Assembly (NCBI GenBank): GCA_963697335.1
Contig: CAVONQ010000003.1
Span: 32,001 to 96,000, forward strand
Length of the DNA stretch: 64,000 bases
From: an uncultured cyanobacterium
Lineage (GTDB): Bacteria > Cyanobacteriota > Cyanobacteriia > PCC-6307 > Cyanobiaceae
Direction of reading: 5' to 3'
Under the pieces are notes generated by a model. That model searched no databases. It was not told where the DNA came from and saw nothing but the letters and a program-made list of their open reading frames with translations. This document shows, piece by piece, positions 4,891-61,547 of the stretch. Numbering within the stretch: the first letter of the stretch is position 1; each line of letters starts with the position of its first letter. The translations under genes were made by a program, and so were the position numbers.

Positions 4891-4959
4891 CAGGCATCCA
4901 GACCCTCTCGCTCTGTCTTGGTTTAGGCGCAAATGGCCGCCAGCGCCAGCACCCGGGCC

Positions 4960-8937: not shown

Positions 8938-10445
8938 ATCGCGCGCAGGGTGCCCAGTTGCTGCTCAGCCCAGTGCTGCACGGTGAACTCCTCCACCGCC
9001 TCGGACATCGAAGCCATGCGGCGCTTCTGCTCGTCCAGGGGCATCTCCAGGGCGGCGACGATGGCCGCGTCCATGCTCCGGTGGGAGTAGGGGTTGGTGA
9101 CTACCGCGTCTTCCAGTTCCACCGAGGCCCCGGAGAACTCGGAGAGCACCAGCGCCCCACCCTGGCCCTGGCGGGTGGCGACGTATTCCTTCGCCACCAG
9201 GTTGAGACCGTCCCGCAGCGGCGTGATCCAGCACACGTCCGACTGGCTGAACCAGGCCACCAGCTCGTTGTAGGGAGTGCGGCGGGTGGAGAGGCGCACG
9301 GGGGTCCAGTCGATGCGACCAAAGCGACCGTTGATGCGGCCCACGATCTCCTCCACCGAGCGCTGGATGTCTTCATAGATGCGCATGCCGCTGGCGGCGG
9401 CCACACAGGCGAGGAACAGCTCCACTTCGCCGTGCCACTGGGGCTGCTGCTCCAGCACCCGCTCGTAGGAGAGCAGCATCTCCTCGTTGCCCTTGGTGTA
9501 GTCCACCCTGGAGGCCGAGATGATCAGCTTGCGGCCGGCGTGCTGCTCGGAGATCTGGGCCGCCATCGTCTGCACCTCAGCGCTGTCCCTGAGCTCACGG
9601 ATCACATCCGGGGAGGTGCCCACCGGAGAGGCCTGGATGTGTACCCGGCGGCCGTTGTGCTCCAACCAGGGCAACACCGTGGGCTGGGCCAGGGCACTGC
9701 CGTGGTGGCGGAACTTCGCGGCCACCGGCACGGGATCACCACAGCGGGCGCCGCGCAGATTGATGGCGGTGCGGGAGAAGTTGTCGGCGTAGCGGGGAAT
9801 GTGGAAGCCCACCAGGTCGCAACAGAGCAGGCTGTCGAGAATTTCATCACGCCAGGGCAGGATGCTGAACACGTCGTTGGAGGGGAACGGCGTGTGGTGA
9901 AAAAAGGCGATCCTCACATCGGGTCTGAGGGCCCTGATCTGGGCTGGAGCCAGCCAGAGGTTGTAGTCGTGCACCCAGATGGTGGCCCCTTCCGCCGCCT
10001 CCTCACAGGCCGCGCGGGCAAACGACTGATTGACCCCTACAAAGGTGTCCCAGTCTGAGTTGTCAACACTGAACAAGCCTGGGAAGCTGTGTAGAATCGG
10101 CCAGAAGGATTCCTTCGAGGTGACGTGATAAAAACTCGAAATCTGCGTTTCGGTCAGCGGCAGTCGTCGCAGGGTGAATGGACTGGCCAACGGCACCGTG
10201 AGCCGTTCGTCAACAGCATTGGAAGCATCATCCTCTTGGCGCCAGGAAATCCAGGTGCCGGAGCGCTCCTCCAGAAACAGATTGCGGAGGGTGGGGATGA
10301 TGCCGTTCGGGCTTTTCTGATCGACGAACTCGATGCTGCCATCGGCGGCTGTTTTGAGGTCGTAGGGGGAGCGGTGGTAGACCAGCACAAAGCTGCTGCT
10401 GCCGAAGGCCTGGCTGGGATCTGACTGCGCAAGGATGCTGGGCAT
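8934..10445 (-). CDS. ggpS: Glucosylglycerol-phosphate synthase (GT20); start could be up to 10490
   Basis: LVYHRSP, KSPNGIIPTL, WVHDYNLW, FFHHTPFP, RVDYTKG, TPLRDGLNLVAKEY, LSEFSGA. Confidence 0.92.
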   Translation of the reverse strand: MPSILAQSDPSQAFGSSSFVLVYHRSPYDLKTAADGSIEFVDQKSPNGIIPTLRNLFLEERSGTWISWRQEDDASNAVDERLTVPLASPFTLRRLPLTETQISSFYHVTSKESFWPILHSFPGLFSVDNSDWDTFVGVNQSFARAACEEAAEGATIWVHDYNLWLAPAQIRALRPDVRIAFFHHTPFPSNDVFSILPWRDEILDSLLCCDLVGFHIPRYADNFSRTAINLRGARCGDPVPVAAKFRHHGSALAQPTVLPWLEHNGRRVHIQASPVGTSPDVIRELRDSAEVQTMAAQISEQHAGRKLIISASRVDYTKGNEEMLLSYERVLEQQPQWHGEVELFLACVAAASGMRIYEDIQRSVEEIVGRINGRFGRIDWTPVRLSTRRTPYNELVAWFSQSDVCWITPLRDGLNLVAKEYVATRQGQGGALVLSEFSGASVELEDAVVTNPYSHRSMDAAIVAALEMPLDEQKRRMASMSEAVEEFTVQHWAEQQLGTLRAI

Positions 10446-10639
10446 GGGCAAACTGTCTGTGGCACGCATGGCTTGGGGAACTGGCATCAACAGGACGTGG
10501 TTGAACCTCGCGGGGCTCGCTGCGCTACGAATCCGGATAGGACGAGATTGGAATCAGCTTGTCCGCCTGGCGGACAAGCACCATCAGAGGACCACAGCGG
10601 CACACTGTTATGGCCTTCAACAAGCAAAAAGGTCCTGAT

Positions 10640-10668
10640 ATCATAGATCAAGTGTACCACTTTGTCAA
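10640..10668 (-). promoter_or_regulatory. Sigma70-type promoter of the ggpS operon (TTGACA-N17-TATGAT)
   Basis: Minus strand: TTGACA (10668-10663), 17-nt spacer, TATGAT (10645-10640), in an AT-rich intergenic region. Confidence 0.75.
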
Positions 10669-10903
10669 GCGGTCTTGACTTGTTGATGATCTTCGCTCCG
10701 GCTTATTGCGGACCAGCCGTTGAATCATCGCCGGAATGGGCAGATGGAGACTGTGACTCACGATATCGACAGACGCCCCGACGCTGTCACCAGAAGCAAC
10801 GCCCCCATTGAAATTTTTTTGCTGCGATCCAGGTGATCATCAAGATGCCATCCGGCAAACCGGGGCCGTCCTAAGCTGATCCCAGCTCTGTAGCGAATCC
10901 TCC

Positions 10904-11137
10904 GTGCCGCTCAGCCTGGTCCAACGGGGACAACGGGTGCGTGTTGTGTCGCTACCCGTCTATCCAGCCCTGCAGGGGCGACTTCTGGCGATGGGCATTC
11001 GGCCGGGGGCCGAGCTGGAGGTGCTGCGCCGCAGCAAGCCCGGCGGCACCCTTCACCTCGCCAGTGGGCTGCTGGAGTTCATGCTCCGCCACGACCATGC
11101 CGAGGAGCTGGAGGTGGAGGCACTGCCCCAGGCCTGA
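10904..11137 (+). CDS. feoA: Ferrous iron transport protein A
   Basis: 77 aa with RLLAMGIRPGAELEVLR FeoA motif; GTG start. Confidence 0.85.
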   Translation: MPLSLVQRGQRVRVVSLPVYPALQGRLLAMGIRPGAELEVLRRSKPGGTLHLASGLLEFMLRHDHAEELEVEALPQA

Positions 11138-16529: not shown

Positions 16530-18134
<1,605 letters not shown>

Positions 18135-18182
18135 ACACCAGAACGCTAGCAAGGTTGTCCCGGCTGCGCCTTGCCGCGGTCC

Positions 18183-26125: not shown

Positions 26126-27376
26126 ATGACCACAGGCCTGCCGGCCAGGCTCCGTCAGGTGCGTCAGCACAGCCTGGATCTGATCGCACCGCTGCAGCCG
26201 GAAGACCTCTGCCTGCAGGGCATGGCCGACGCCAGCCCGCCCAAGTGGCACCTGGGCCACACCACCTGGTTTTTCGAGACGTTCGTGCTCCGGCCCCTGC
26301 AGGCGGCGGGGGTGGAGCTGGGCTTCACGGCTGCGCCCGAGGCCTGGGGCTTCCTGTTCAACAGCTACTACGACACGATCGGCGAGCGCCATCCGCGGCC
26401 CGAGCGGGGACTGCTGAGCCGCCCGCCGATCGAGGCCGTGCTGGCCTGGCGCCAGCAGGTGGATCAGGCCCTGGAGAGGCTGCTGGATCAGCAGCAGGGG
26501 CCTGGCACGCCATCCGCAAGCCACGAGCTGCTGGAGCTGGGCCTGCAGCACGAGCAGCAGCACCAGGAGCTGCTGCTGATGGACCTCCTGGATGGCTTCA
26601 GCCGGAATCCTCTCCAGCCCTGCTATGCGGCCGAGCCCGAAGAGCGCTTCCGCAGCGCCTGGGTCGCCGGCAGCCAACCCTCCCCGGCGGCGGCTGGCTG
26701 GCTGGAGCACCCCGGCGGGCTGCTGGAGATCGGCCACGACGGCACCGGCTTCCACTTCGACAACGAGGCTCCCAGGCACCGCCAGTGGCTCGAGCCCTTC
26801 GCGCTGGCCGAGCGGCTGGTGACCAATGGCGCCTACGCCGCCTTCATCGCCGATGGGGGCTACAGCAGAGCGGAGCTGTGGATGAGTGAGGGCTGGGCCC
26901 TCGCCAGGGCCGAGGGCTGGCAGGCCCCCCTTTACTGGCGCGATGGGGCGTCCGAGCCCTATGCCTTCACCCTGGCGGGCCCGCAGCCGCTGCACCCCCA
27001 GGCCCCCGTGAGGCACCTGAGCTGGTTCGAGGCCGACGCCTTTGCCCGCTGGGCCGGGGCCCGCCTGCCCACGGAGGCCGAATGGGAAGCCCTGGCCGGG
27101 CGCCTGCCCCAGGCCCATGGCCTGCTCTGGCAGTGGACCGCCAGCCCTTACCGCCCCTATCCCGGCTTCCGCGCCGCCCCTGGGGCCGTGGGCGAATACA
27201 ACGGCAAATTCATGAGCTCCCAGATGGTGCTGCGCGGCAGCTCTTACCTGACGCCGCCGGGCCATGCTCGACCCACCTACCGCAATTTCTTCCCGCCTGG
27301 CTGCCGCTGGATGGCCTCCGGCCTGCGGCTGGCCCAGGACCGCCCCAACGACCACCCCAGCCCCCCAGCCGCGTGA
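26126..27376 (+). CDS. egtB: Ergothioneine sulfoxide synthase EgtB
   Basis: SPPKWHLGHTTWFFE, HEQQHQE iron ligands, FGE-sulfatase domain, GEYNGKFM, YRNFF. Confidence 0.92.
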   Translation: MTTGLPARLRQVRQHSLDLIAPLQPEDLCLQGMADASPPKWHLGHTTWFFETFVLRPLQAAGVELGFTAAPEAWGFLFNSYYDTIGERHPRPERGLLSRPPIEAVLAWRQQVDQALERLLDQQQGPGTPSASHELLELGLQHEQQHQELLLMDLLDGFSRNPLQPCYAAEPEERFRSAWVAGSQPSPAAAGWLEHPGGLLEIGHDGTGFHFDNEAPRHRQWLEPFALAERLVTNGAYAAFIADGGYSRAELWMSEGWALARAEGWQAPLYWRDGASEPYAFTLAGPQPLHPQAPVRHLSWFEADAFARWAGARLPTEAEWEALAGRLPQAHGLLWQWTASPYRPYPGFRAAPGAVGEYNGKFMSSQMVLRGSSYLTPPGHARPTYRNFFPPGCRWMASGLRLAQDRPNDHPSPPAA

Positions 27377-28443
27377 CCCCACTGCCATCCGCCCCCGCCA
27401 GCCGCATCGCGGCCGCAACAGCCGCCCCCACCGAGCTGATCGACCTGCACCCCGAGCCCGCCGACATGGTGCGCCTGGTGAGCGAGGGCATGGCCCTGCG
27501 GCCGCGGCAGCTGCCCGCCTGGCTCCTTTACGACGCCGAGGGCTCCCGGCTGTTCGAGGCGATCTGCGCCCAACCTGAATACAGCCTCACCCGGGTGGAA
27601 ACGGCCCTGCTGGAGAGCCGGGCCGAGGAGCTCGCCGCGGCCCTGGGCGAGGGCGTGCTGGTGGAATTCGGCGCCGGCAATGCCCGCAAGGTGGCGCCGC
27701 TGCTGCGGGCGTTGCGACCGACGGCCTACGTGCCGATGGACATCAGCGCCAGCCACCTGGCCGGCGCCTGCGAGGCCCTGCAGGCCCAGCACCCGGCCGT
27801 GCCCGTGCTCGGCATCTGCTGTGACTACAGCCAGTTGGACCACCTGCCTGAACACCCCCTGTTGCAGGGCGAGCGCCTGCTGGGCTTCTACCCAGGCAGC
27901 TCCCTGGGCAACTTCAGCCCCGACCAGGCCCGGCGGCTGCTGGAGCAGTTCAGCAGGCTGCTGGGTCCCGGCAGCTGCCTGCTGATCGGCATCGACCAAC
28001 CCAAGGGCAGGGCTCGGCTGGAGGCGGCCTACAACGATGCGGCCGGGGCCTCGGCCGCCTTCGGCCGCAACCTGCTGGTGCGCCTCAACCGCGATCTGGG
28101 CGGCACGTTCGATCCCAGCGCCTTCGCCTACCGGGCCCGCTGGGAAGCCGACCACAGCCGCATCGCCATGGCCCTGGTGAGCCGGAAGGAGCAGGAGGTG
28201 CAGCTGGCCGGCCGCCGCTGGCGGTTTGGGGCGGGCGAGGAGCTGATCACCGAGTACAGCGTCAAGTACACCCCTGAGGCCTTCACTGCCCTGGCGGCTG
28301 CGGCCGGCTGGAAGGCCCTGCGGCGCTGGAGCGACCCCTCCGGCGACCTCTCGCTGCACCTGCTGGTGCCGGAGGCGGCGGACCGGGGCGGCCCCCAGGG
28401 AGCAGACTCGGAGGGGTCTGCGCCAGTGCAGCGGGAGAGCTGA
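27373..28443 (+). CDS. egtD: L-histidine N-alpha-methyltransferase EgtD
   Basis: LYDAEGSRLFEAIC, EFGAG, PGSSLGN, AYNDAAG, TEYSVKY; GTG start overlaps the egtB stop (GTGA). Confidence 0.92.
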   Translation: MTPLPSAPASRIAAATAAPTELIDLHPEPADMVRLVSEGMALRPRQLPAWLLYDAEGSRLFEAICAQPEYSLTRVETALLESRAEELAAALGEGVLVEFGAGNARKVAPLLRALRPTAYVPMDISASHLAGACEALQAQHPAVPVLGICCDYSQLDHLPEHPLLQGERLLGFYPGSSLGNFSPDQARRLLEQFSRLLGPGSCLLIGIDQPKGRARLEAAYNDAAGASAAFGRNLLVRLNRDLGGTFDPSAFAYRARWEADHSRIAMALVSRKEQEVQLAGRRWRFGAGEELITEYSVKYTPEAFTALAAAAGWKALRRWSDPSGDLSLHLLVPEAADRGGPQGADSEGSAPVQRES

Positions 28444-38426: not shown

Positions 38427-39449
38427 CTACCGGGCAGCCAGAAAGGCCTCCACCTGGGCGGCGCTGGGCTGGGGATCGATGGCACCGGCCCCCTGGCACA
38501 CCAGGGCCCCGCAGGCGCTGGCGAAGCGCATCAGCTGCTCCACCGCCAGGCCGTCATCCCCCTGCAGCAGCATCGGCCTGGCGACCAGGCCATGCAGCAC
38601 CCCGGCCGTGAAGGCATCCCCGGCGCCGGTGGTGTCCAGCACCGGCACCCGGTAGGGAGCCATGGCGCCGCTGGCATGGCCGAGGCACCAACGCAGCGGC
38701 GCCGCCCCATCGGTGACCACCACGGCCGGCTGCTGGGGCAGGGCCGCCCGCACCAGCTCCGGATCGGCACTACCGAACAGCCACTGGGCCTCTTCAGCAG
38801 CGCACTTCACCAGGGCGGCCCGCTGCAGCAGGGCGCGGATGCGCCCGGCCTGCTCAGGCCTGGGACCCGCCTGCGGCGCCGCCATCCCATCCCAGAAGGT
38901 GGGTCGCCAGTTGACATCCACCGCCAGGGCCACGCCGCGGCTGCCGGCCTGCTCCACGGCGAACTCCAGGGCCGCCGCGGCGCCGCCGGCCAGGGGCAGG
39001 GTTCCCACCAGCAACCAGCTCGCCGACTCCGGCAGGGCTGCCGCCGCCAGGGCCTCGTCGGCGAAGCCCTCGCCACGGTCGCCCGCGAAGCCACCGAACT
39101 GGCGCTCGCCGGCCAGGTCGCGGCGCACCAGCACGATGCGGGTGGGCCGGCGGCCATCCCACTGCAGGCCGCTGGTGTCGACGCCCCGGGCCTGGAACAG
39201 CGCAGCCAGGGCCTCGCCAGCCGGGTCACGGCCCAATCGGCCCAGGAAGGCCGCCCCCGTACCCAGGCGGGCCAGGGCGCAGGCCACGTTGGCGGGGGCC
39301 CCACCGAGACGGTCGTCGCAGTCGCCAGGGGCGGCGCAGGCGGGATCGCCGCCCAGGGGTCCCAGGCGATCCACCAACGCCTCGCCGAGGCAGAGCACCA
39401 GCGATCGTGGGGCGGCCGGTGGCGGGGCAGCCAATGGTGGGGCAGCCAT
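38427..39449 (-). CDS. PfkB-family carbohydrate kinase (fructokinase-like)
   Basis: LGEALVD, GGAPANVA, DVNWRP, DTTGAGDAF. Confidence 0.9.
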   Translation of the reverse strand: MAAPPLAAPPPAAPRSLVLCLGEALVDRLGPLGGDPACAAPGDCDDRLGGAPANVACALARLGTGAAFLGRLGRDPAGEALAALFQARGVDTSGLQWDGRRPTRIVLVRRDLAGERQFGGFAGDRGEGFADEALAAAALPESASWLLVGTLPLAGGAAAALEFAVEQAGSRGVALAVDVNWRPTFWDGMAAPQAGPRPEQAGRIRALLQRAALVKCAAEEAQWLFGSADPELVRAALPQQPAVVVTDGAAPLRWCLGHASGAMAPYRVPVLDTTGAGDAFTAGVLHGLVARPMLLQGDDGLAVEQLMRFASACGALVCQGAGAIDPQPSAAQVEAFLAAR

Positions 39450-39496
39450 GGGAGCGGGGCCATCTCCCCCCAGGTTGGCCCAGGGCCGAGCCGGCG

Positions 39497-40717
39497 TCAG
39501 CCGGGCTCCACCAGCCCCCGGGCAAGTCGGTCCTGCAGGGCGGCGATGATGCGGGCATTCGCCGCCGGGAAGGGAAAGTCCGCGAGCTGCTCCGGCCGCA
39601 CCCAGCGCACCTGCTGGCTGGCCAGGGGCTGGGGCTCGCCGCTGCTCCAGCGGCAGAGGTGCACCACGAAGCGCAGCCGCTTGTGGCTGTAGGCGTGCTC
39701 GAGGCAGATCAGCTCCTCCCCCACCTGCACCTCGATGGCCAGTTCCTCGCGCAGTTCGCGGGCGATGGTGGCCGCAATCGCCTCGCCTGGCTCCTGCTTG
39801 CCACCGGGAAACTCCCACAGCCCCCCCAGCAGACCCTCCGGCAGGCGCTGATCGATCAGCACCCGGCCGTCGGCGTCGAGCACCACCCCCACCCCGATCA
39901 CCTGGAAGGGCACGGTCTTGGCGACGTCCTTCACGGGGAAGCGGGCGGGATCGCCGGCAGCGTAGGCAGCGCAGTGGCCCTGCCAGGGGCAGACCCCGCA
40001 GCGCGGTTGGCGGGGGGTGCAGACGCTGGCGCCCAGGTCCATCAGGGCCTGGTTGAAGGCGCGGGGATGGCGGCGATCCAGCAGGGTGTGGCTCAGCTGC
40101 CAGTACGCCGCCTGCTGGCGGGCCGGGGGCTGGGGGCAGGCCAGCAGCCGCGCCAGCAGCCTCCGCACGTTGCCGTCCAGGATCGGGTGGGCCAGGTCGT
40201 AGGCCGAGGAGAGGATGCTGCCGGCGGTGCTGGGGCCCACCCCCGGCAGCGCCAGCCAACCCTCGAGCTGCCGCGGCCAGGGGTCCTGGGGGGCTTGCTG
40301 CTCAGGGCCCTGGCCAGGAGGGGCATGCGTCAACAGCTGCCTGGCTCCCTGAAGCAACCGCCGTGCCCGGACGTAATAGCCAAGGCCCTGCCAGAGCAAC
40401 AGCACGCTCTGCTCCTCAGCGCCGGCCAGGGCCTCCAGGCTCGGGAAGGCCGCCATCCAGCGCTGCCAGTAGGGGAGCGCCACCTGCAGCTGGGTCTGCT
40501 GCAGCATGATCTCGGCCACCCAGATTCCCCAGGGATCGAGGGCCGCGCCGGGCTGGGGCGGGCTGCCATCGGGGTGCAGCTTCCAGGGCAGCCCATGGCG
40601 ACCCTCCAGACGCCACCAGGCCAGCAGACGGCTGCGCAGCGTCGGCGCCAGGCCGGTGAGCCGCTCCGTGGCCGCCTCCAGGCTCCACGCCACCGCTGAG
40701 TCCGAACCGGCCCGCAT
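39497..40717 (-). CDS. mutY: A/G-specific adenine glycosylase with C-terminal MutT/Nudix domain
   Basis: EIMLQQT, WQGLGYY, LPGVG...DGNV, CTPRQPRCGVCPWQGHC Fe-S motif, GGKQEPGE...RELREEL. Confidence 0.92.
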   Translation of the reverse strand: MRAGSDSAVAWSLEAATERLTGLAPTLRSRLLAWWRLEGRHGLPWKLHPDGSPPQPGAALDPWGIWVAEIMLQQTQLQVALPYWQRWMAAFPSLEALAGAEEQSVLLLWQGLGYYVRARRLLQGARQLLTHAPPGQGPEQQAPQDPWPRQLEGWLALPGVGPSTAGSILSSAYDLAHPILDGNVRRLLARLLACPQPPARQQAAYWQLSHTLLDRRHPRAFNQALMDLGASVCTPRQPRCGVCPWQGHCAAYAAGDPARFPVKDVAKTVPFQVIGVGVVLDADGRVLIDQRLPEGLLGGLWEFPGGKQEPGEAIAATIARELREELAIEVQVGEELICLEHAYSHKRLRFVVHLCRWSSGEPQPLASQQVRWVRPEQLADFPFPAANARIIAALQDRLARGLVEPG

Positions 40718-40731
40718 CCCCTGTTTCCCCC

Positions 40732-41808
40732 CTACCTCGCCTCCTGGGAACTGGAGACGGACACCTCCCGGTAGCGCTCAGGGTCGGCCAGCAGCCTGGC
40801 CAGATCCGGCACCACCGCCAGGGTTTCTCCAGTGCGCTGGCGCAGCAGCCGGGAGTGGTAAGCGCCGGGCTCCACGCCCTGGCGGCGCCAGCGCAGCACC
40901 TGCCAGTCGAGGCCCAGCAGGCGATAGAGCAGGGCCTGCAGGCGCAGGGCCGGGGTCAGCTCGGCAGGCCGCTCACGGCGGCCCATGGGGCGGCCTAGTT
41001 GGGCGGCGGTCTGGCGCAGCTTGCGGGGAAGGCGCTGACGCAACCGCTCGGGGCTGAGCGATTCGAACAGGCGGATCAGCCGCTGGTGCTCCGGGGTAAA
41101 GACGTTGTAGCGGTGGCGGCTGCCGCGGTGGTTGTGGGTCACCACCCGGATGCCGGCCAGGTCTGGGCTGAAGACGAAGCGGCCGCCCAGGCGCCAGGCC
41201 CGCAGCAGCCAGTCGCGCAGGGAGGTCCGCCACAGGCGGCTGGAATGGATCCAGGGGCCGACCCGGCGGGCGTAGGCCGTGCGCACCAGCCAGAAGCTGC
41301 TGGGGTCGTAGTAGAGGTCTTCGGGGCGCAGCAGCAGCCGCAGATCCCTGAGGTCGGGGCCGATCGTGAGCCGCTTCATGAATACCGGCCGAATCGAACC
41401 ATCGGGCTCTTCGTGACAGGTCGCCAGCTTCAGGGCCGGCGCCAGCAGCAGGTCAGCGCCGCTCAGGGCGAGCCGCTGCAGGCCCAGCTCCAGGTGATCC
41501 GGCAGCAGCAGGTCGTCGTGGTTGAGAAAACACACCACCGGCGCCCTGGCGAGGGCCAGCCCGAAGGAGTTGGGGCCAGACTGCTCCCCGAAGCGCTCGC
41601 CCAGGTTGTAGTAGCGCACGCGGGGATCGGCCAGGGCCGCAAGCATGGCGCCCGTGTCCGGCGCGCAGCAGTCGCCCACCACCAGGGCCTCCCAGTCAGC
41701 ACAGGTCTGCAGCTGCAGCGCCCGCAGGGTGCTGCGCAGGGCCTCCACCCGTTTGTAGGTGGCGATCACAAAGCTGACGCGGGCGGCGGGGGGCAGCACG
41801 GCGCTCAC
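40732..41808 (-). CDS. Glycosyltransferase family 2
   Basis: VSFVIATYKR, EALVVGDC, NFGLALA-like segment, FLNHDDLLLPDHL; GTG start overlaps the upstream stop. Confidence 0.85.
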   Translation of the reverse strand: MSAVLPPAARVSFVIATYKRVEALRSTLRALQLQTCADWEALVVGDCCAPDTGAMLAALADPRVRYYNLGERFGEQSGPNSFGLALARAPVVCFLNHDDLLLPDHLELGLQRLALSGADLLLAPALKLATCHEEPDGSIRPVFMKRLTIGPDLRDLRLLLRPEDLYYDPSSFWLVRTAYARRVGPWIHSSRLWRTSLRDWLLRAWRLGGRFVFSPDLAGIRVVTHNHRGSRHRYNVFTPEHQRLIRLFESLSPERLRQRLPRKLRQTAAQLGRPMGRRERPAELTPALRLQALLYRLLGLDWQVLRWRRQGVEPGAYHSRLLRQRTGETLAVVPDLARLLADPERYREVSVSSSQEAR

Positions 41809-43157
41809 AGGTAAGCCAGGAGCATTGAGATCAGGCTGCGTGCCTCATTGGAGAACACGCCCTGGCGTTTGAGCAGCCGCTCGATCTGGCCGAGGGTCAT
41901 CCAGCGCAGCGCTGGCGAGCTGGGCAGCGCATCGGCCTCCGCCATCAGGGCGATGCTGTAGCGGGCCACGGAGCGGTAGAAGCGCCCCCCCTCATCGGAA
42001 TGAAGGCTGCTGAGCACGGGGGTGGCCCGCCCGCACAGCTCTGCCAGCAGAAGCTCCTCGGCATCCAGCTCCGGCACGGGAGAGGGGGCGCCGCCGGCAT
42101 CCTGCAGGGCCGGGCCGTACTGAAACCTCTCCCGGAAGCCGATCTCGGCGCGGGCGCGGAACAGCAGGTGCAGCACCCCGTTGAAGCGGCTGCCCAGCAG
42201 CACCGCCGTGCCCTGACGCTCCTGGGCCACGATCGGCTGATCCCAGCTCTGCACTTCACGTTCGCTGGAGCGTACCGCCACCTGGCGGACATCGAAGCTG
42301 CCCGCCGGCCCCAGCAGGCGCGGCTGGCGGCCCTCCAGCCAGTCCAGCTCCCCATCCAGCGACACGGTGCGCACCTGAAAGGGGTGGCTCTGGCGTAGCT
42401 GCTCCAGGGCCGCCAGGATCTCTGCCTCGCTGCTCAGCGCCTCGCTGGGCGGGGCGGCGTAGGAGCGCAGCAGACTCTCACCGATCCCCCCCTGGCCGTG
42501 CCAGCGACTGAAGGGCACCGCCCCGCCGGCCAGCAGCGACCAGTCCGAACTGGCCAGCACCGAGCGGGCATCGGTGTTGATCTGGAAGTCGGTGCCCAGA
42601 AGGGCACACACCTCGGGCAGCGGGGCCCAGCGATAGCCCTCCGCCGTGTCGAGGGCCAGCTCCGCTGGCACCTCCACGGTCATGTTGCGGTTGTACTTGC
42701 CCAGGAAGCGGGTGCCCTGCTCCGACTGAAGGCTGTCGGCATGCACCCGGGCGGCCGGATGGCCGGTGAAGAAGTCGAGAAACGGGGTGGCCTTGCCGTG
42801 GTGCAGGCGCTGGTAGTTGCTGCGGGTGGCCTGCACCGAGGGAGCGGCCTGGCAGAGGCCGATGTTGCCTGGTTCGGGCTTGGCCTGGATCAGCAGATGG
42901 GGCACACCACCCCGGCGCTGCAGCAGAAAGCCGAGGATGCCGATCTCAGGCTGGTTGATCAGGGGCTGGCGCAGGGTGACGCTGGACGCGTTCTCGGCCT
43001 CCACCGCCACGATGCTGAAGAAGCCGCCGGAGTGGTGCTGCAGGGCGCCGTCGCTGTAGTGCCACTCCCGCGAGTGCCGCCAAGGAATCTCCTCCACATG
43101 CATGTCGCAGGTCTGGCGGCGATGGTCCAACCAGGACAGCAGCGACTCAGGCGGCAT
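41805..43157 (-). CDS. NDP-hexose 2,3-dehydratase (EvaA/OleV/TylX3 family)
   Basis: Two-domain repeat with GGFFSI, QPEIGILG, QAKPEPGN, PSVQATRSNY, QSEQGTRF..K.NRNM, WDQPIV, SDEGGRFY, NEARSL. Confidence 0.88.
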   Translation of the reverse strand: MPPESLLSWLDHRRQTCDMHVEEIPWRHSREWHYSDGALQHHSGGFFSIVAVEAENASSVTLRQPLINQPEIGILGFLLQRRGGVPHLLIQAKPEPGNIGLCQAAPSVQATRSNYQRLHHGKATPFLDFFTGHPAARVHADSLQSEQGTRFLGKYNRNMTVEVPAELALDTAEGYRWAPLPEVCALLGTDFQINTDARSVLASSDWSLLAGGAVPFSRWHGQGGIGESLLRSYAAPPSEALSSEAEILAALEQLRQSHPFQVRTVSLDGELDWLEGRQPRLLGPAGSFDVRQVAVRSSEREVQSWDQPIVAQERQGTAVLLGSRFNGVLHLLFRARAEIGFRERFQYGPALQDAGGAPSPVPELDAEELLLAELCGRATPVLSSLHSDEGGRFYRSVARYSIALMAEADALPSSPALRWMTLGQIERLLKRQGVFSNEARSLISMLLAYL

Positions 43158-43226
43158 GGGCAGGAATGGGGAGCAGGGGGCCGCAGGGCTTTGCGAGGGG
43201 ACGCTAATCCTGCCCCCGTCTCGCCC

Positions 43227-44267
43227 TCAGCTCGCCACGTAGGCCTCCACGGCGCTGCCGAGGCGGCGCAGGCCAGCCAGCCCGTCCCGCTCCAGGTTGC
43301 GCACCCGGTCACGGCTGATGCCCAGCACCCGACCGATCCCGGTGAGGCTCATCGGTTCGGCCACGTCGGCCGACTCGGGATCGATGCCGTAGCGCATCTT
43401 CAGCACCCGCCCCTGCAGTTCCGGCAGCTGCTCCAGCAGCGCCCGCAGGTCCCCCTTCAGGCACTCCCCGTCCACCCGGTCCTCCGGCAGCTCACCGTCC
43501 CCGGCCAGCAGGTCCAGCAGCTCCGTGTCCTCGCCATCCCCCACCTTCGTCTCCAGACTCACCGGCTGCCGCGCCCGGCACAGCAGATCCTTCACCTCCT
43601 CCTCCGGCAGCTCCACAAACACCGCCAGCTCGCTCACCGTGGGCGTGCGGCCCAGCTCCTGGCTCAGTTCCCGCTGGCCCTTCTTCAGCTTGTTCAGTGT
43701 TTCGGTGATATGGATCGGCAGCCGGATCGTGCGGCTCTTCTCCGCGATCGCCCGCGTGATCCCCTGGCGGATCCACCAGTACGCATACGTACTGAACTTG
43801 TAGCCCCGCGTCGGGTCGAACTTCTCCACACCCCGCACCAGGCCGATCGTGCCCTCCTGGATCAGGTCCAGCAGTTCCATGTTCCGCTTGGTGTACTTCT
43901 TCGCCACGCTCACCACCAGCCGCAGGTTCGCCGCCACCATCCGCTCCTTCGCCCGACGGCCCGCCTGCAGACGCTTCTTCAGCACCGGCACGCTCAGGCC
44001 CGCCGCCGACGCCAGCTCCACCTGCTCCGGCGCCGTGCCGCCGGCACGCATCGTCAGCTCCTGCTCAATCTCCTCCAGAGCCATCAGCTCCTGCACCTGG
44101 CGGCCCAGGGTGATCTCCTGCTCATGGCTCAGCAACGGCACCCGGCCGATGTCACGCAGGTAGCTGCGCACCAGGTCCCCATCCACAGCGGGCATGGAGC
44201 GGGCTGGGCGCTCGGAGCGCTGGGCGCGGGGGGCGGTGATGGGGGTAGGGGCAATGGCGATGGTCAT
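43227..44267 (-). CDS. Group-2 RpoD/SigA-family sigma factor
   Basis: [44 protein letters not shown], region-4 HTH. Confidence 0.93.
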
Positions 44268-44353: not shown

Positions 44354-45766
44354 TCAGCCCATGCCGAAGTGGCCGATCAGCCAGCCCGCCGTGCTCAGGT
44401 AAATGAACACCCCGGCCACGTCGGTGGCGGTGGTGATGAACGGCGCCGACATCAGCGCCGGATCCAGCTTGAGGCGATCGAAGAGCAGCGGCAGCGCCGC
44501 CCCTGCCGTGGCCGCCAGGGTGGTGATCGCCAGCAGACTGATCCCCACCGAGAGGCCCACCAGGGGGCCTTCGCCGCGCCACCAGGCCCAGGGCACCACC
44601 ACCACCAGCATCAGCAGGCCCAGCAGGGCGCCGGCCACCGCCTCCCGCGCGATCGTGCGCCAGGCCCCCAGCGCCTGGATCCGCTGGGTGCTGAGGCCGC
44701 GGATCACCACGGTGGAGCTCTGGGCGCCGACGTTGCCGCCCGTGCCGATCAGCAGCGGAATGAAGGCCGCCAGCAGCACCACCTGGTTGAGCACCTCGCC
44801 CTGCAGGGCGATCACCTCGGATGTGAAGCCGTTGGCCACCACCAGCACCGAGAGCCACACCACCCGGCGCCGCGCCACGGTGAACAGGTTGCTCTGGAAA
44901 TAGTCGTCCTCATCACCGGCCTGCACGGCGCCGGCGGCGTAGAGGTCGCGGGTGGCCTCCTGCTCGATCACGTCGATCACGTCGTCCACCGTGACGATCC
45001 CCACCAGCCGCTCCTCCCGATCCACCACGGGCACGGCCAGGAAGTCGTAGCGCTGGATGGCGCGGGCCACCTCCTCCTGGTCGGTCTCGGTGGACACGCT
45101 CACCACCTCCCGGGTCATGACATCGCCGATGCGGTCCTGGGGGTCGGCCACCACCAGATCCCGCAGCGACAGGATGCCGGTGAGGTGGCGGGAGCCGTCG
45201 GTCACATAGAGGGAATAGATGGTCTCGGTGTCGCGGGCCCGCCGACGCACCAGGTCCAGGGCCTGGGCCGCGCTGTGGAACTCCTTCAGATCGATGAATT
45301 CCGTGGTCATCAGGCGCCCCGCCGTCTCTGCCGCGTAGCCCAGCAACTGGGCCGTGACGCGCCGCTCCGCCGGGCTCAGCTCCGCCAGCAGCCGGCGCAC
45401 CACCTTGGCCGGCAACTCGTCGAACAGCCGCACCCGGTCGTCCGGCGACATGCTCTCCACCAGCTCCAGCACCTCGCCGGAGCGCAGCCGGTCCAGCAGG
45501 CTCTGCTGCACGGCACCGTCGAGGTATTCGTACACCTCGATCGCCTCGTCCTTGGGCAGCAGCCGGAAGGCCAGGGCCTGCAGGGTGCGCGGCAGGGTGC
45601 CGATCGCCTCGGCGATGTCCACCTCCTGCACGGGCTGCAGCAGCAGCTTGGCGCCGTCGTAGTTGCCGGCCTCCAGCAGGGTGGCCAACTGCCGGGACAC
45701 CACCTCGGCCACCATGACGCGGCCGCCGCCCGCCAGCTCCTGGTTCGGGGCCTTCGCCTCGCTCAT
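44354..45766 (-). CDS. mgtE: Magnesium transporter MgtE
   Basis: TAGRLMTTEF, CBS pair, GGNVGAQ, DPALMSAPFITTATD. Confidence 0.95.
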   Translation of the reverse strand: MSEAKAPNQELAGGGRVMVAEVVSRQLATLLEAGNYDGAKLLLQPVQEVDIAEAIGTLPRTLQALAFRLLPKDEAIEVYEYLDGAVQQSLLDRLRSGEVLELVESMSPDDRVRLFDELPAKVVRRLLAELSPAERRVTAQLLGYAAETAGRLMTTEFIDLKEFHSAAQALDLVRRRARDTETIYSLYVTDGSRHLTGILSLRDLVVADPQDRIGDVMTREVVSVSTETDQEEVARAIQRYDFLAVPVVDREERLVGIVTVDDVIDVIEQEATRDLYAAGAVQAGDEDDYFQSNLFTVARRRVVWLSVLVVANGFTSEVIALQGEVLNQVVLLAAFIPLLIGTGGNVGAQSSTVVIRGLSTQRIQALGAWRTIAREAVAGALLGLLMLVVVVPWAWWRGEGPLVGLSVGISLLAITTLAATAGAALPLLFDRLKLDPALMSAPFITTATDVAGVFIYLSTAGWLIGHFGMG

Positions 45767-46651: not shown

Positions 46652-49730
<3,079 letters not shown>

Positions 49731-52486: not shown

Positions 52487-52558
52487 AGCGGATGAAGAGA
52501 TTCGAACTCTCGACCCTCTCCTTGGCAAGGAGATGCTCTACCACTGAGCTACATCCGC
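52487..52558 (-). tRNA. tRNA-Gly(GCC), CCA not encoded
   Basis: GCGGATG TAGCTCAGTGGTAGAGC ATCTCC TTGCCAA GGAGA GGGTC GAGAG TTCGAAT CTCTT CATCCGC T cloverleaf. Confidence 0.97.
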
Positions 52559-56450: not shown

Positions 56451-57356
56451 TCATCCGCCGCGCCTCTCCAGCAGCACGAAGGGATCAAACGTCACGCTGA
56501 TGCCGAACTCCTCGGCGAACTCCAGCACCCGACACCAGGCCCGGTTCTCGCGCAGGATGCCCCGCAGGATCACCGGGGCGTTGCCGCTCTGCAGCGTCAT
56601 CTCGAACAGGGGCCAGCCCACCGAGGGCTGCACCTGATCCTCCCGGAAGCTGGGCACCACATCGAGGCTGCCCACGAGGATGCGGCGCCGGCTGGCCTCC
56701 CAGGCATAGGGGATCTCGTAGAGGGCGAGCAGGTCGGCGGCCAGGGCCCAGGAGCTGCCGGCGGCATCGATCTCCACCGCCAGCTCCCGGCCACGGGCGG
56801 GCATGGTGGCGGCCCGGCGGAAGGCCAGCGCCGCCTCGGAGGGCTGCAGCGGCGGCTCGGGTGGGAGCTGGGGCGCCGCCAGAAAGCTGCGGATGCGCTG
56901 GCGCAGTTCGTCCCCGCCGCTGGGTGGGCCGTTCCTGGTGAGCTGGAGAAAGTCCCAGCGCTCGCCGGTGCCGCCCCAGATCACCGGGCCGTAGTTCTCG
57001 TGCATCCACTGGCCATCGCGGTTGGAGGCGGCCTCGGCGTGGGTCATCACCCGCTCGATGCCGATGTCGGCCGGGCCCCAGCCCCAGCTGCGGGCGACCT
57101 GGGCGGCCTCGCGGCAGAGGGCCTCGAGCTGGGCCTCGGTGGGGGGCAGCGTCCAGGGATCGGGGCGGCCGCCCATGCAGGCACAGGAGAGGGCCACGGC
57201 ATTGCTGTTGCGGCGCCAGGTGTGGGCCGGCAGATCGATGCTGTAGGCGTGCAGCCGATTCAGGCGGCCATCTCCGCCGATGATCGTGTGATAGAGCCCG
57301 GAGCGCACCCAGCTGTAGGAGGTGGCGGCCCAGTGCAGGTAGATCGTGGCCGGCAT
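56451..57356 (-). CDS. N-acetylmuramoyl-L-alanine amidase (Amidase_2-like) with C-terminal accessory domain
   Basis: IYLHW, YHTII, AHTWRRN, TEAQLEAL, VMTH zinc-amidase pattern. Confidence 0.7.
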   Translation of the reverse strand: MPATIYLHWAATSYSWVRSGLYHTIIGGDGRLNRLHAYSIDLPAHTWRRNSNAVALSCACMGGRPDPWTLPPTEAQLEALCREAAQVARSWGWGPADIGIERVMTHAEAASNRDGQWMHENYGPVIWGGTGERWDFLQLTRNGPPSGGDELRQRIRSFLAAPQLPPEPPLQPSEAALAFRRAATMPARGRELAVEIDAAGSSWALAADLLALYEIPYAWEASRRRILVGSLDVVPSFREDQVQPSVGWPLFEMTLQSGNAPVILRGILRENRAWCRVLEFAEEFGISVTFDPFVLLERRGG

Positions 57357-57488
57357 CGGCGGAAGCGTGGGCAGGAACGCTGCGAAAGGGGCTGCAGCAT
57401 CACTCCAGACCGTAGCCACAGCCCAACCCAAGGCCTCCAGTGACAGGTTTGATCGGCGGAGCCTGGTCGGCGGGCTCAGCTGAGCTCC

Positions 57489-58592
57489 CTACCCCACCAA
57501 CCCCAGCCGCCCGCCGGTGTAGCCGCCGCGCTCGCGCACGGCCGTGCACCAGCCCTGCTGCTCCAGATACCAGCGCACGGTGGCCTCCAGGCCCTGCTCG
57601 AAGTCGTGGCGCGGCTGCCAGCCCAGCTCGCTGCTGATGCGCGCCGGGTCGATGGCATAGCGGCGGTCATGGCCGGGGCGGTCGGTGACCGGGGTGATCA
57701 GGCGGGCGTGGGGAGCACCGGCCGGGCGCAGCTGATCGAGCAGGGCGCAGATCGCCTCCACCACCTGTTTGTTGGTGCGTTCGCCGTGGCCGCCCACGCA
57801 GTAGCTGCGGCCCAGCTCGCCCCGGGTGGCGGCCAGCAGCAGGGCGTCCACGTGGTCCTCCACATAGAGCCAGTCGCGCACGTTGGCGCCATCGCCGTAG
57901 AGGGGGATCGGCTCACCGGCGGCGGCCTTGAGGATCACCACCGGGATCAGCTTCTCGGGGAACTGCCAGGGGCCGTAGTTGTTGGAGCAGTTGGTGAGCA
58001 CCACCGGCAGGCCGTAGGTGTGGTGCCAGGCGCTCACCAGGTGGTCGCTGGCGGCCTTGCTGGCCGAGTAGGGGGAGCGGGGGTCATAGGGGGTGGTCTC
58101 CGAGAAGCGGCCCGTGGACCCCAGCGAGCCGAACACCTCATCGGTGCTGATGTGGTGCAGCCGGAAGGCGGCGCGGCGCTCCTCGGCCAGAGCCTCGTGG
58201 TGGGTCCGCACCGCCTGCAGCAGGTGGAAGGTGCCGCTCACGTTGCTGGCGATAAAGGCCTCCGGACCCTCGATCGAGCGGTCCACGTGGCTCTCGGCGG
58301 CCAGGTGCATGACCAGATCCGGATCGGCCTGGCGCACCGCCGCGGCCGTGGCCTCGGCATCGGTGAGGTCCACCCGCAGCAGCTGGTGGCGGGCCTCGGC
58401 GCCGTCACCGAGCTCGGCCAACACCGCCTCCACGCTGGTGAGATCGCTGGCGTAGCCGCACTTATCGAGGTTGAAGACCGTGGCCTCGCTCTCGCGCAGG
58501 AGACGCCGCACCACGGCGCCGCCGATGAAGCCGGCGCCGCCGGTCACCAGCACGCGGCGGCGGGGACCGAGCAGGGAGGGGAGTTGGATCAC
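57489..58592 (-). CDS. rfbB: dTDP-glucose 4,6-dehydratase
   Basis: [40 protein letters not shown]. Confidence 0.95.
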
Positions 58593-58594
58593 GG

Positions 58595-59578
58595 TCAGCG
58601 GGGGTGGGGAAGGGAAGAGGGCAGCTGCTGCAGCACCTGGCGCAGGGCCGTGCGCCAGTGGCAGGGCGGCAGGTCGAGCAGGCGGTGGCTGGCGGTGCAC
58701 TCCAGCAGCGAATAGCTGGGCCGGCGGGCCGGGGTGGGGTAATCGGCGGTGGTGATCGGCCGCACCCGCGCCTGGCGCTGCAGCAGCCCAAGCTCCTGGC
58801 CCAGCTCGCCGATGGCCACGGCGAAGTCGTACCAGCTGGCGGCGCCGGCATCGCTCCAGTGCAGCAGGGGCGGCAGGATCTCGGCCTGGTCGGCCGACAC
58901 CCCCGCGCCGCTGGCCACCGCGATCAGCCGCCAGCAGGCCACCGCCAGGGTGAGGGTGCTGGTGGGGCAGCCCACCTGGTCGGCCACCACGCCGATCTCC
59001 GGCTTCTCGGCGTGCAGGCGCAGCATGGTGAGGCAGAAGTTGCGGCCCACTGGGCCATACACCCAGCTGGTGCGCAGCACCTGCACGCGGCCATCCTCCG
59101 CCAGGGCGCTGGCCAGCACCGCCTGTTCGCCGGCCGCCTTGCTGGCTCCGTACACACCGAGGGGCGCCAGGGCCTGGTCGGGGCGGTAGGGGGTGCCCTG
59201 GCTGCCGTCGAAGACGAAATCGGTGCTCACCTGCAGCAAGCGGCCGCCGCTGCCGGCCAGGGCCTCAGCGAAGGCCGCGGGCGCCGCAGCATTCACGGCG
59301 GCGGCCAGCTCCGGCTCGGTTTCGGCCCTGTCCACCGCCGTGTAGGCACCGGCATTGAGCACCCAGTGGGGGCGCAGCTCCTGCACCAGCTGGCGGCAGG
59401 CACTCGCATCGGCCAGATCCAGGGCCCTCTGGCCGTCACCGCCGCTGCGGCTGGTGGCGATCAGCTCCAGGCCCGGCGGGGCACTGGAAAGAAGTGCCTG
59501 GCCCAGCTGGCCGGCGGCACCGGTGAGCAGCACCTTCAGGGGCTCATCGGCTGGATCCATCGCGGCCGGGGGGCTCAT
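58595..59578 (-). CDS. rfbD: dTDP-4-dehydrorhamnose reductase
   Basis: GAAGQLG, AYTAVDRAE, STDFVFDG, YGASK. Confidence 0.95.
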   Translation of the reverse strand: MSPPAAMDPADEPLKVLLTGAAGQLGQALLSSAPPGLELIATSRSGGDGQRALDLADASACRQLVQELRPHWVLNAGAYTAVDRAETEPELAAAVNAAAPAAFAEALAGSGGRLLQVSTDFVFDGSQGTPYRPDQALAPLGVYGASKAAGEQAVLASALAEDGRVQVLRTSWVYGPVGRNFCLTMLRLHAEKPEIGVVADQVGCPTSTLTLAVACWRLIAVASGAGVSADQAEILPPLLHWSDAGAASWYDFAVAIGELGQELGLLQRQARVRPITTADYPTPARRPSYSLLECTASHRLLDLPPCHWRTALRQVLQQLPSSLPHPR

Positions 59579-60159
59579 GGGAACAGGTCCGTGGCGTCCA
59601 GTTCGGCCAGGAGCGGCGCCCCACCGTCCTTGCCGCTCAGCTGGGGCTGGGCCCCTGCCAGGGCCCCCAGGGGCCAGGCGATCGCCAGGGCCGGATCGTC
59701 CCAGCGGATGGCGCGCTCACAGTCCTTGCTCCAGAAGTCGGTGGTCTTGTAGAGCACCTCGGCCTCAGCGCTCAGGGTGAGGAAGCCGTGGGCGAAGCCC
59801 GGCGGCACCCACAGCTGCTGCTTGTTCTCGGCGCTGAGCAGGGCGCCACCCCACTGGCCCCAGGTGGGGGAGCTGCGGCGAATGTCCACCGCCACATCGA
59901 AGATCTCGCCCAGCACGCAGCGCACCAGCTTGCCCTGGGGGTGGGGCGGCAGCTGGTAGTGCAGGCCCCTGAGCACCCCCTGCTGCGAGCGGGAGTGGTT
60001 GTCCTGCACGAAGGTCGTGGCACCCGCGGCGGCGTTGAACGTCTGCTGGTTCCAGCTCTCGTAGAAAAAGCCCCGCTCGTCGCCGAACAGGCGCGGGGTC
60101 AGCAGCAGCACCCCCTCCAGCTCGGCTCCTGAGGCACTGCGCAGCGGCTCAACCTGCAT
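59575..60159 (-). CDS. rfbC: dTDP-4-dehydrorhamnose 3,5-epimerase
   Basis: DERGFF, QDNHS, LRGLHYQ, GFAHGF. Confidence 0.95.
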
Positions 60160-61039
60160 GGTCTGTCTCCAACACCTGCAGGAGATACTCGCCGTAGCCA
60201 CTCTTGCGCAAGGGGGCGGCCAGGGCGGCGAGCTGCTCAGCATCGATCCAGCCCATCCGCCAGGCCACCTCCTCGGGGCATCCCACCTTCAGGCCCTGGC
60301 GGTGCTCGAGGGTGCGGATGTAGCTGCCGGCCTCGTGCAGGGAATCGCAGGTGCCGGTGTCGAGCCAGGCCATGCCACGGCCCATCAGCTCCACCCGCAG
60401 CTGACCCTCCTCCAGGTACTGGAGGTTGAGGTCGGTGATCTCCAGCTCGCCCCGGGCCGAGGGCTCCACCCGCCGAGCCCGCTCCACCACGCTGTCGTCA
60501 TAGAAGTAGAGGCCGGTCACGGCGTAGCGGCTGCGGGGCTTGGCGGGCTTCTCCTCGAGGCTCAGCACCCGACCCTCGCCATCGAAGGCCACCACGCCGT
60601 AGCGCTCGGGATCGCGCACCGGATAGGCGAACACCGTGGCGCCCAGCTGTTGGCCATTGCAGCCCTGCAGCTGGGGGCTGAAGTCCTGGCCGTGGAAGAG
60701 GTTGTCACCCAGCACGAGGGCAGCAGGCGCTCCGGCCAGGAAGGACTCCCCGATCAGAAACGCCTGGGCCAGGCCATCGGGACTGGGCTGCACGGCGTAG
60801 TCAATGGCCATGCCCCAGCGGCGGCCGTCGCCCAACAGCCGCGTGAAGGCCTCATGATCTGAGGGGGTGGTGATGATCAGCACCTCGCGGATCCCCGCCA
60901 GCATCAGCGTGCTGAGGGGGTAGTAGATCATCGGCTTGTCGAACACCGGCAGCAGCTGCTTGCTCACCCCAACGGTGATGGGGTGCAGCCTGGTGCCGCT
61001 GCCTCCGGCCAGAATGATGCCCTTGCGCTGCTGGCTCAA
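60149..61039 (-). CDS. rfbA: Glucose-1-phosphate thymidylyltransferase (TTG start assumed; an ATG at 61084 is possible)
   Basis: [37 protein letters not shown]. Confidence 0.95.
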
Positions 61040-61082
61040 AGCGTCGGGGTGGCTGGGAGGATGATGACATGGTGTTGTTGTC

Positions 61083-61547
61083 ATGGTCGCGATCCAGCTG
61101 CTTCGCCATGCTCCAGGCGCCCCCGGCCTGCGCTGGTTCGGCCTCGGCCCCGATTTGCGTCCCACCCGCGCCCTGCTGAAGCTGCGGCGCCTGTTCAACC
61201 ACCACGCCTTCTGGGCCCAGGACCGCAGCTACGCCCAGCTGCGCACCCTGCTGGCCGGCAGCCCCGTGGTGGTGAGCCTGTGGCGGGGCAAGCGGCTGGT
61301 GGGCTTCGGGCGGGCCAGCAGCGATGGCGTCTGCCGGGCCGTGCTCTGGGACGTGGTGGTGGCAGGTGATCTACAGGGCCGCGGCCTCGGCCGCCAGGTG
61401 GTGGAGGGCCTGCTCAGCGATCCACGCCTGCAGCGGGTGGAGCGGGTTTACCTGATGACCACCAACAGCGCGGGCTTCTATGAGCAGCTCGGCTTCCAAA
61501 GGGTGGAAAGCCAGCAGCTGCTGGCGCACCAACCCCGGGGGGCTTGA
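61083..61547 (+). CDS. GNAT-family N-acetyltransferase
   Basis: LVGFGRA, WDVVV...QGRGLG acetyl-CoA motif, FYEQLGF. Confidence 0.88.

Follow-up and report, generated by a model that had tools for sequence, protein, structure and literature searches.

A bare dehydratase–glycosyltransferase gene pair found in at least six bacterial phyla, including picocyanobacteria: a candidate 2-deoxyglycosylation module

The window analyzed here, a 64,000-nt stretch of an uncultured Cyanobiaceae genome (contig CAVONQ010000003.1, positions 32,001–96,000 of the forward strand; coordinates below are window positions unless a locus label precedes them), carries two overlapping genes, one for an EvaA-type nucleoside diphosphate (NDP)-hexose 2,3-dehydratase (DH) and one for a soluble family 2 glycosyltransferase (GT2). 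The initial annotation read the pair as a minimal deoxysugar glycosylation system in a picocyanobacterium; it is no peculiarity of that group but a conserved, self-contained two-gene module, present in six or more phyla. Actinomycete antibiotic sugar pathways are the textbook setting of 2,3-dehydratases, which are thought useless without a partner to trap their unstable product. The pair-linked DHs form a separate clade, reaching from picocyanobacteria to Patescibacteria, in which a glycosyltransferase is the sole constant partner. We put at roughly 0.5 the probability that the pair is a self-contained, horizontally mobile 2-deoxyglycosylation module, tapping deoxythymidine diphosphate (dTDP)-4-keto-6-deoxyglucose and kept by selection.

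Results

The bare pair across phyla

A cross-species scan, with one genome per species, gave 80 loci with a relative of the window DH, in which GT2 was sought by tblastn with the window GT2. A co-oriented GT2 homologue lies within 600 bp of the DH in 31 of them, 8 downstream and 23 upstream, which answers the question raised by the initial annotation of whether the two genes co-occur elsewhere; the remainder either end at a contig edge (9/80) or have no GT2 homologue (40/80). The phyla represented, at least six, are Cyanobacteriota, Pseudomonadota, Acidobacteriota, Bacteroidota, Balneolota, and Patescibacteria, with hosts that include Pseudomonas neustonica, Nitrosomonas, Vicinamibacterales, Sulfuritalea, Kordiimonas, Acidovorax, Parasulfuritortus, Balneolaceae, Nonlabens, Bacteroidales, and one Patescibacteria genome. 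The closest non-cyanobacterial carrier is P. neustonica (L070, L148), its DH being 58% and its GT2 50% identical to those of the window. In the other phyla the DH/GT2 junctions abut or overlap in both gene orders.

Nothing else travels with the pair. When all open reading frames (ORFs) within 8 kb were clustered over the 29 strongest pair loci, only DH and GT2 were common to all 29; the next clusters, from 20 and 7 loci, consist of antisense ORFs that overlie the two genes, and no real neighbor occurs in more than 4 of the 29. A Pfam scan of 84 neighbors in 10 pair loci returned unrelated genes, with no DegT, FdtA, NDP-sugar short-chain dehydrogenase/reductase (SDR), priming transferase, or exporter among them, and an adjacent GFO_IDH_MocA (GFO) gene in a single locus (L096). 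Separately, a zinc-type alcohol dehydrogenase gene (ADH_N/ADH_zinc_N) is found directly upstream of the GT2–DH pair of Kordiimonas aestuarii (L088:6861–7835), and a cluster of 324-aa ORFs present in 4 loci (representative L099:6830–7804) is probably the same enzyme; it could be a lineage-specific reductase partner.

A separate dehydratase clade

A quick IQ-TREE phylogeny of the DHs comprises 73 rows, after removal of eight from the original 81: six fell short of 380 aa and two contained an internal stop, and three of these eight were GT2-adjacent. One subclade of 32 rows (support 83) holds 29 GT2-adjacent DHs, one at a contig edge, and two scored as having no GT2 (L090, L095); both of the latter have a more divergent GT2 directly upstream, so that GT2 linkage holds for each of the 31 rows of the subclade that could be tested. 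The window DH groups with four cyanobacteria (100), with P. neustonica as their sister (98). The other half of the tree contains all 13 actinomycete rows and 22 others, without an adjacent GT2 homologue. By this tree, the pair-linked DHs are a clade separate from the classical 2,3-dehydratases. In a sister clade it is a family 61 glycosyltransferase (GT61) that abuts the DH, in 3 of 4 testable loci (Table 1); at L092 a protein with a 3-keto-disaccharide hydrolase domain is next in line.

As a control, 39 neighbors from 10 non-actinomycete loci of the classical half were scored for GFO, DegT, FdtA, and NDP-sugar SDR. A GFO gene lies directly downstream of the DH in 6/10, DegT and FdtA are each near it in 4/10, and an NDP-sugar epimerase/dehydratase-type SDR in 3/10, so that 9/10 have at least one of the four, compared with GFO in 1/10 and DegT, FdtA, or SDR in 0/10 of the pair clade. 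Since the scan recovers the canonical partners where these exist, the lack of them next to pair-clade DHs is real.

The two proteins

The DH is composed of two tandem Nudix-like Hexose_dehydrat domains, matched by PF03559 in two stretches (E 5.2e-101, 336.6 bits; cut-off 25), and its sole solved relative is EvaA (PDB 4j7g; E 1.9e-72). A review (PMC8987622) describes E139 and E190, which lie in pocket A of EvaA, as essential residues and pocket B as a remnant. The corresponding residues of the window DH in a HMMER alignment are E95 and E146, of which the first is invariant and the second nearly so among 16 homologues of 42–100% identity. The enzyme thus looks catalytically competent, judged from its sequence. 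The nearest named homologues are from Cyanobium strains (79% and 78% identity), and database entries already name the gene a 2,3-dehydratase.

GT2 passes PF00535 (Glycos_transf_2) at E 4.4e-14 and 53.2 bits (cut-off 23.3), and consists of a GT-A domain followed by a helical, Arg/Trp-rich C-terminal part; no transmembrane or hydrophobic segment is visible in the translation. The enzyme identities given in the initial annotation, a full two-domain dehydratase and a GT2, therefore hold for both ORFs. Across 21 pair-linked homologues, G45–D46 (within the motif G45-D46-x-C48) and N96-H97-D98-D99 are invariant, G74-E75-Q76...N80 is also common to them, and the C-terminal motif R325-T326-G327 is near-invariant. 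The AlphaFold (AF2) model (mean confidence, pLDDT, 89.3) matches WrtF (Z 19.3), SpsA (19.0), RmlT (19.0), TarP (18.8), and AvpGT (18.8) in Foldseek and VIA-align comparisons, mainly over its N-terminal half. SpsA was solved with dTDP, RmlT uses TDP-rhamnose on teichoic acid, and WrtF is a fucosyltransferase; these matches fit a nucleotide-6-deoxyhexose donor without proving one. Searches of the ESM Atlas with GT2 returned only generic GT2 clusters, some of them viral. In essence, GT2 is an unremarkable GT-A enzyme that belongs to a subfamily of its own. Predictions of a DH–GT2 complex from paired alignments, run without controls, gave ipSAE values of 0.31, 0.00, and 0.00, which carry no weight either way on binding.

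The locus in the window

On the minus strand the order is gyrB, mgtE, sigma factor gene, DH, GT2, mutY, pfkB-type kinase, ahcY, mreB, all co-oriented, as the initial annotation had it (Table 1). The 4-bp overlap of DH and GT2 that it reported consists of shared bases forming GTGA, an arrangement that would couple their translation. Its placement of the pair between the sigma gene and mutY is likewise correct, while its 14-bp gap between GT2 and mutY holds only for the longest mutY ORF: alignments to the family models begin only at about residue 27, and the true gap may therefore be up to about 90 bp. Longest-ORF coordinates, used here for the rml genes among others, overshoot true starts in this 70% GC genome. 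The 610-aa pfkB ORF, for example, overlaps mutY by 763 bp, and the starts of ahcY, mreB, rmlA, and rmlB overshoot likewise. The mutY ORF matches TIGR01084 with E 3.1e-79, yet its 266.4 bits stay below the cut-off of 286.5.

The pair has a GC content of about 0.70, equal to the host base composition, and a profile search finds a single PF03559 gene, the window DH, in the 2.58-Mb genome. A simple scan shows no terminator or promoter between the sigma gene and DH. Domain scans confirm the earlier statement about the neighborhood: within about 6 kb of the pair there is no ketoreductase, aminotransferase, polyketide or nonribosomal peptide synthase, or export gene. Nor does the window hold a priming transferase, flippase/polymerase, or ABC exporter around the pair, as an O-antigen or exopolysaccharide cluster would.

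Table 1. Positions of the pair, its neighbors, the rml genes, and features of related loci
Feature	Position	Strand	Basis or detail
DH, EvaA-type NDP-hexose 2,3-dehydratase, 450 aa	41805–43157	−	PF03559, two stretches
GT2 glycosyltransferase, soluble, 358 aa	40732–41808	−	PF00535, residues 12–122
GTGA overlap of DH stop (TGA) and GT2 start (GTG)	41805–41808	−	ORF coordinates and translations
Sigma-70 gene, cyanobacterial RpoD-type, group-2 type; upstream slot border	43227–44267	−	TIGR02997, 426 bits (cut-off 384.5)
mutY, A/G-specific adenine glycosylase; downstream slot border	39497–40717	−	HhH-GPD, EndIII 4Fe-4S, and NUDIX_4 domains
mgtE	44354–45766	−	
gyrB	46652–48787	−	
pfkB-type kinase, 610-aa ORF	38427–40259	−	Pfam match starts at residue 287
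rmlB	57489–58700	−	TIGR01181, 427 bits, over cut-off
rmlD	58595–59578	−	TIGR01214, 287 bits, over cut-off
rmlC	59575–60243	−	TIGR01221, 241 bits, over cut-off
rmlA	60149–61198	−	TIGR01207, 485 bits, over cut-off
Partial mutY copy, genome G023	L049:14222–14542		residues ~24–130, 64% identity
Partial mutY copy, genome G001	L047:2158–2316		residues 25–77, 53% identity
GT61-paired DH loci (Opitutaceae, Rhodospirillales)	L092:8070–9347; L098:10262–11575; L082:6695–8935		

Substrate supply and the search for a reductase

The rmlA and rmlB genes noted before at 14–18 kb from the pair belong to a complete, unlinked rmlA-rmlC-rmlD-rmlB operon (57489–61198, minus strand), all four members of which pass NCBIfam equivalog cut-offs and which is predicted to supply dTDP-4-keto-6-deoxyglucose. 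RmlB exceeds its cut-off in 7/7 carriers of the genus compared with 17/25 non-carriers, 4 of the 8 RmlB-lacking non-carriers being less than 90% complete. Among tested carriers of other phyla, RmlB is found in 4/5, RmlA in 4/5, and one or the other in 8/9; the controls have RmlB in 10/14 and RmlA in 7/14. This distribution backs the substrate link weakly, because related genomes are not independent, and there is one clear counter-example (see Discussion). A 326-aa ORF that follows rmlB (56451–57431) was considered as a hidden partner and ruled out; it is probably amidase_2-like (Atlas score 0.98).

A canonical 2,6-dideoxysugar pathway uses a 3-ketoreductase of the KijD10/OleW type or a DegT partner, and neither is encoded within about 6 kb of the pair. 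The genome-wide search for Gfo/Idh/MocA reductases proposed in the initial annotation yielded two genes, on contigs C18 and C14. The best PDB match of the C18 gene is 7bvj (E 1.8e-45), and the C14 gene sits among DegT genes. The sugar 3-ketoreductase KijD10 (3rbv) aligns with both over the N-terminal Rossmann part only (E 2.5e-13 and 2.2e-8), so neither looks KijD10-like.

The pair in a variable chromosomal slot

We compared 32 genomes of the genus, the window genome included, with the sigma-to-mutY intervals of the relatives taken as loci L046–L063. DH and GT2 co-occur strictly, in the same 7/32 genomes, and in 6/6 carrier relatives the pair directly follows the sigma gene; mutY itself is found in 31/32. 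The interval, 40718–43226 in the window, ranges over the genus from about 40 bp (G017) through 0.7–1.1 kb (G046, G004, G006), 2.8–7.2 kb (G011, G013, G008, G007, G041, G042, G010), and 10.8 kb (G015) to at least 14.5 kb (14.5 kb in G023). The “housekeeping gene run” of the initial annotation, which suggested checking the sigma–mutY adjacency in relatives, is thus not a stable block: between the sigma gene and mutY lies a cargo slot that is hypervariable in the genus.

Elsewhere in the genus the cargo of this slot is unrelated to sugars, mostly transporters and lipoproteins. One type is formed by one or two Na+/H+ exchangers with an NlpE/META lipoprotein, another by a sulfate-type ABC transporter with a pyridoxal phosphate enzyme and Rrf2 and Crp regulators. 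Individual genomes hold a type I restriction-modification system (G044), a methyltransferase (G006), an RCC1-repeat protein (G010), or a family 1 glycosyltransferase adjoining mutY (G023), and in G045 the pair and the exchanger–lipoprotein set share the slot. Partial second copies of the mutY 5′ end occur upstream of the intact gene, on the far side of the cargo or inside it (Table 1), and may be a footprint of cargo insertion. The mgtE gene beyond the sigma gene is itself variable, with two tandem copies in G013, G042, G023, G007, and G016 (L046, L048, L049, L055, L013) and a single copy in the window, G012, G002, G019, and G009.

In a quick mutY tree of 30 genus genomes, built on a single gene that is linked to the slot, five carriers cluster (SH-aLRT 91) and two fall elsewhere; the tree requires at least three presence/absence changes, of which well-supported branches force only one. 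Relative to the window, the ratio of nonsynonymous to synonymous substitution rates (dN/dS) is 0.23–0.31 for DH and 0.18–0.36 for GT2, next to 0.30–0.45 for mutY and 0.06–0.24 for the sigma gene. With values of 0.18–0.36 the pair is therefore under purifying selection. In its dS the pair resembles the neighboring mutY, a similarity suggesting that it has long been resident in one subclade and is not a recent import.

Discussion

How the module might work

In the reading that we favor, the host enzymes RmlA and RmlB would make dTDP-4-keto-6-deoxy-D-glucose, and the pair would branch off the rhamnose pathway at this intermediate. DH would strip the C2 hydroxyl in an EvaA-like reaction through E95/E146, giving dTDP-3,4-diketo-2,6-dideoxyglucose. 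The co-translated GT2, presumably a metal-dependent inverting enzyme of the GT-A type that carries an HDD motif, would then move the labile diketo donor, possibly channeled from one enzyme to the other, or a form of it reduced by unlinked host reductases, onto an acceptor. The likeliest acceptor would be a cell-envelope glycan, with strain-to-strain surface variation as the outcome.

Several observations weigh against this proposal. The diketo product decays to maltol and dTDP, no 3-ketoreductase is linked to the window pair, and no glycosyltransferase is known to use the 3,4-diketo product directly, so that the transferred sugar is undefined. Neither of the two Gfo/Idh/MocA genes of the genome looks like one for a KijD10-type 3-ketoreductase, aldo-keto reductase- and SDR-type reductases not having been surveyed. 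The structural matches of GT2 are tied at Z 18–19 and thus inform on its fold, not on its donor. RmlA and RmlB are just weakly more frequent in non-cyanobacterial carriers than in controls, and P. neustonica, a carrier of the pair, shows no RmlB over the cut-off, GalE being its best match, nor any RmlA at E 1e-30; a PseB/WbpM-like UDP-N-acetylglucosamine 4,6-dehydratase gene adjoins its GalE gene. Genes for polysaccharide export, polymerization, or priming are missing beside the pair, both in the window and in the 10 other pair loci, so that an envelope acceptor is a guess. Finally, the GT2 of G016 breaks into two frames around residue 284–299 (L013:7045–8089); either this copy is a frameshift pseudogene or the metagenome-assembled genome contains an assembly error.

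Other readings

A bolder version of the proposal, which we think improbable though worth stating, would dispense with the reductase altogether: the glycosyltransferase would capture dTDP-3,4-diketo-2,6-dideoxyhexose directly, in a minimal two-enzyme pathway spread horizontally through at least six phyla and lodged in strain-variable slots, that of Cyanobium between the sigma gene and mutY among them. A keto-deoxysugar would then be installed on the acceptor as such, or be reduced only after transfer.

The chemistry could also be the one proposed and the acceptor not an envelope glycan at all but a protein, or a small molecule that stays in the cytoplasm or is secreted. Such an acceptor would explain why the pair can do without export, polymerase, and priming genes and is portable as a two-gene unit, and it agrees with a soluble GT2, with the lack of linked polysaccharide genes, and with a module context that is unrelated from phylum to phylum. 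However, the structures nearest to GT2 are wall-polymer or polysaccharide enzymes, and no conserved candidate acceptor gene stands beside the pair; we regard this alternative as rather unlikely.

More doubtful still is that the clade works on a substrate, or by a chemistry, other than that of EvaA, for example on another NDP-4-keto sugar or in a Nudix-type reaction, with a product that needs no reductase. The separation of the clade from all classical 2,3-dehydratases, the consistent lack of the reductase, aminotransferase, and isomerase partners of the classical clade, and the P. neustonica genome, with the pair and neither RmlA nor RmlB, all point in this direction. They are countered by the retention of both EvaA catalytic glutamates and of the whole two-domain architecture, and by the RmlA/RmlB record of the other carriers, complete for RmlB in the genus. 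Were the pair to act on another substrate, a large part of PF03559 would be mis-annotated.

An anti-phage or stress islet with a defense role rather than one in routine glycan synthesis is very improbable: the patchy distribution (7/32 genomes) and the restriction-modification system in the slot of another genus genome speak for it, but neither protein matches a PADLOC-DB 2.0 model at E 0.01 (which excludes only the systems in that library), tblastn finds no DH homologue in 50,697 phage records, and the slot otherwise holds mainly transporters and lipoproteins. In plasmids, tblastn with DH gave hits in 93 records, 83 from Streptomyces and a few others from Serratia and Hoeflea among the rest, the matches listed being 34–36% identical and all actinomycete. 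Equally improbable is that the pair has been left over, displaced or decaying, from an O-antigen or natural-product cluster and yields no product in this strain, an outcome close to one of the two that the initial annotation named as refuting it: partner enzymes are missing and one carrier has its GT2 in two frames, yet both ORFs are intact in 6/7 carriers, dN/dS is low, and the same bare pair, with a dehydratase clade of its own, is conserved in the phyla listed above.

If the module does what we propose, it would rank as the smallest genetic unit known to add a 2-deoxysugar, and hence as a compact tool for glyco-engineering. In abundant aquatic phototrophs it would stand for a new class of surface or metabolite modification that varies between strains. 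It would also raise an enzymological question, namely whether a glycosyltransferase is able to use a 3,4-diketo donor.

Other features of the window

Positions 132–10490 have the appearance of a compatible-solute or sugar block, with genes for an FGGY kinase, an FAD-dependent glycerol-3-phosphate-type dehydrogenase, an alpha-amylase-family enzyme, a sugar ABC transporter, and a family 20 glycosyltransferase of the trehalose-/glucosylglycerol-phosphate synthase type (8934–10490); the lowest GC of the window, 0.57, lies just past it (10001–11000). A thiamine pyrophosphate riboswitch (18023–18140, minus strand) directly precedes thiC (16530–18038). At 26126–28443 on the plus strand an EgtB-like gene (DinB_2 and FGE-sulfatase domains) stands beside an EgtD-like gene (Methyltransf_33), which suggests, by domain content, ergothioneine synthesis; their longest ORFs overlap by about 300 bp, the second start probably being further in. 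The sole transfer RNA gene of the window (52487–52558, minus strand) is located between a GntR-type regulator gene and cysE.

Comparison with known systems

Both protein families are already known. Open-access papers and bioRxiv yielded no account of a cross-phylum clade of stand-alone dehydratase–GT2 pairs without a reductase partner, of its GT61-linked sister clade, or of residence in the sigma|mutY slot of Cyanobium. Among the papers listed, those on NDP-hexose 2,3-dehydratases are, by title, mostly on actinomycete clusters, and those on Cyanobium, Synechococcus, or picocyanobacteria do not mention the dehydratase.

The window DH shares its tandem Nudix-like domains and both catalytic glutamates with EvaA, TylX3, OleV, and SpnO of actinomycete glycoside pathways. 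Unlike these, it lies outside a biosynthetic cluster and has no adjacent Gfo/Idh/MocA, DegT, or FdtA gene; it is only 31–39% identical to the DHs of the classical clade and falls in a clade apart from them. The pair DH is always in an operon with one glycosyltransferase.

GT2 has the GT-A fold and a DxD-type motif (NHDD) in common with SpsA, TarP/TarS, RmlT, WrtF, and PglI/AvpGT, with Z 18–19 over about 190–215 residues. It differs from these wall-polymer and polysaccharide GT2s in its low identity (13–23%), in motifs of its own (GD.C, GEQ..N, and RTGE), and in a helical C-terminal part that lies outside the coverage of their structures.

Picocyanobacteria (Prochlorococcus, Synechococcus) carry strain-variable glycosylation islets in genomic islands. 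The pair resembles them in being patchy and strain-variable at a fixed chromosomal junction, and differs from them in comprising only two genes, with a host-like GC of about 0.70 and a dS like that of mutY.

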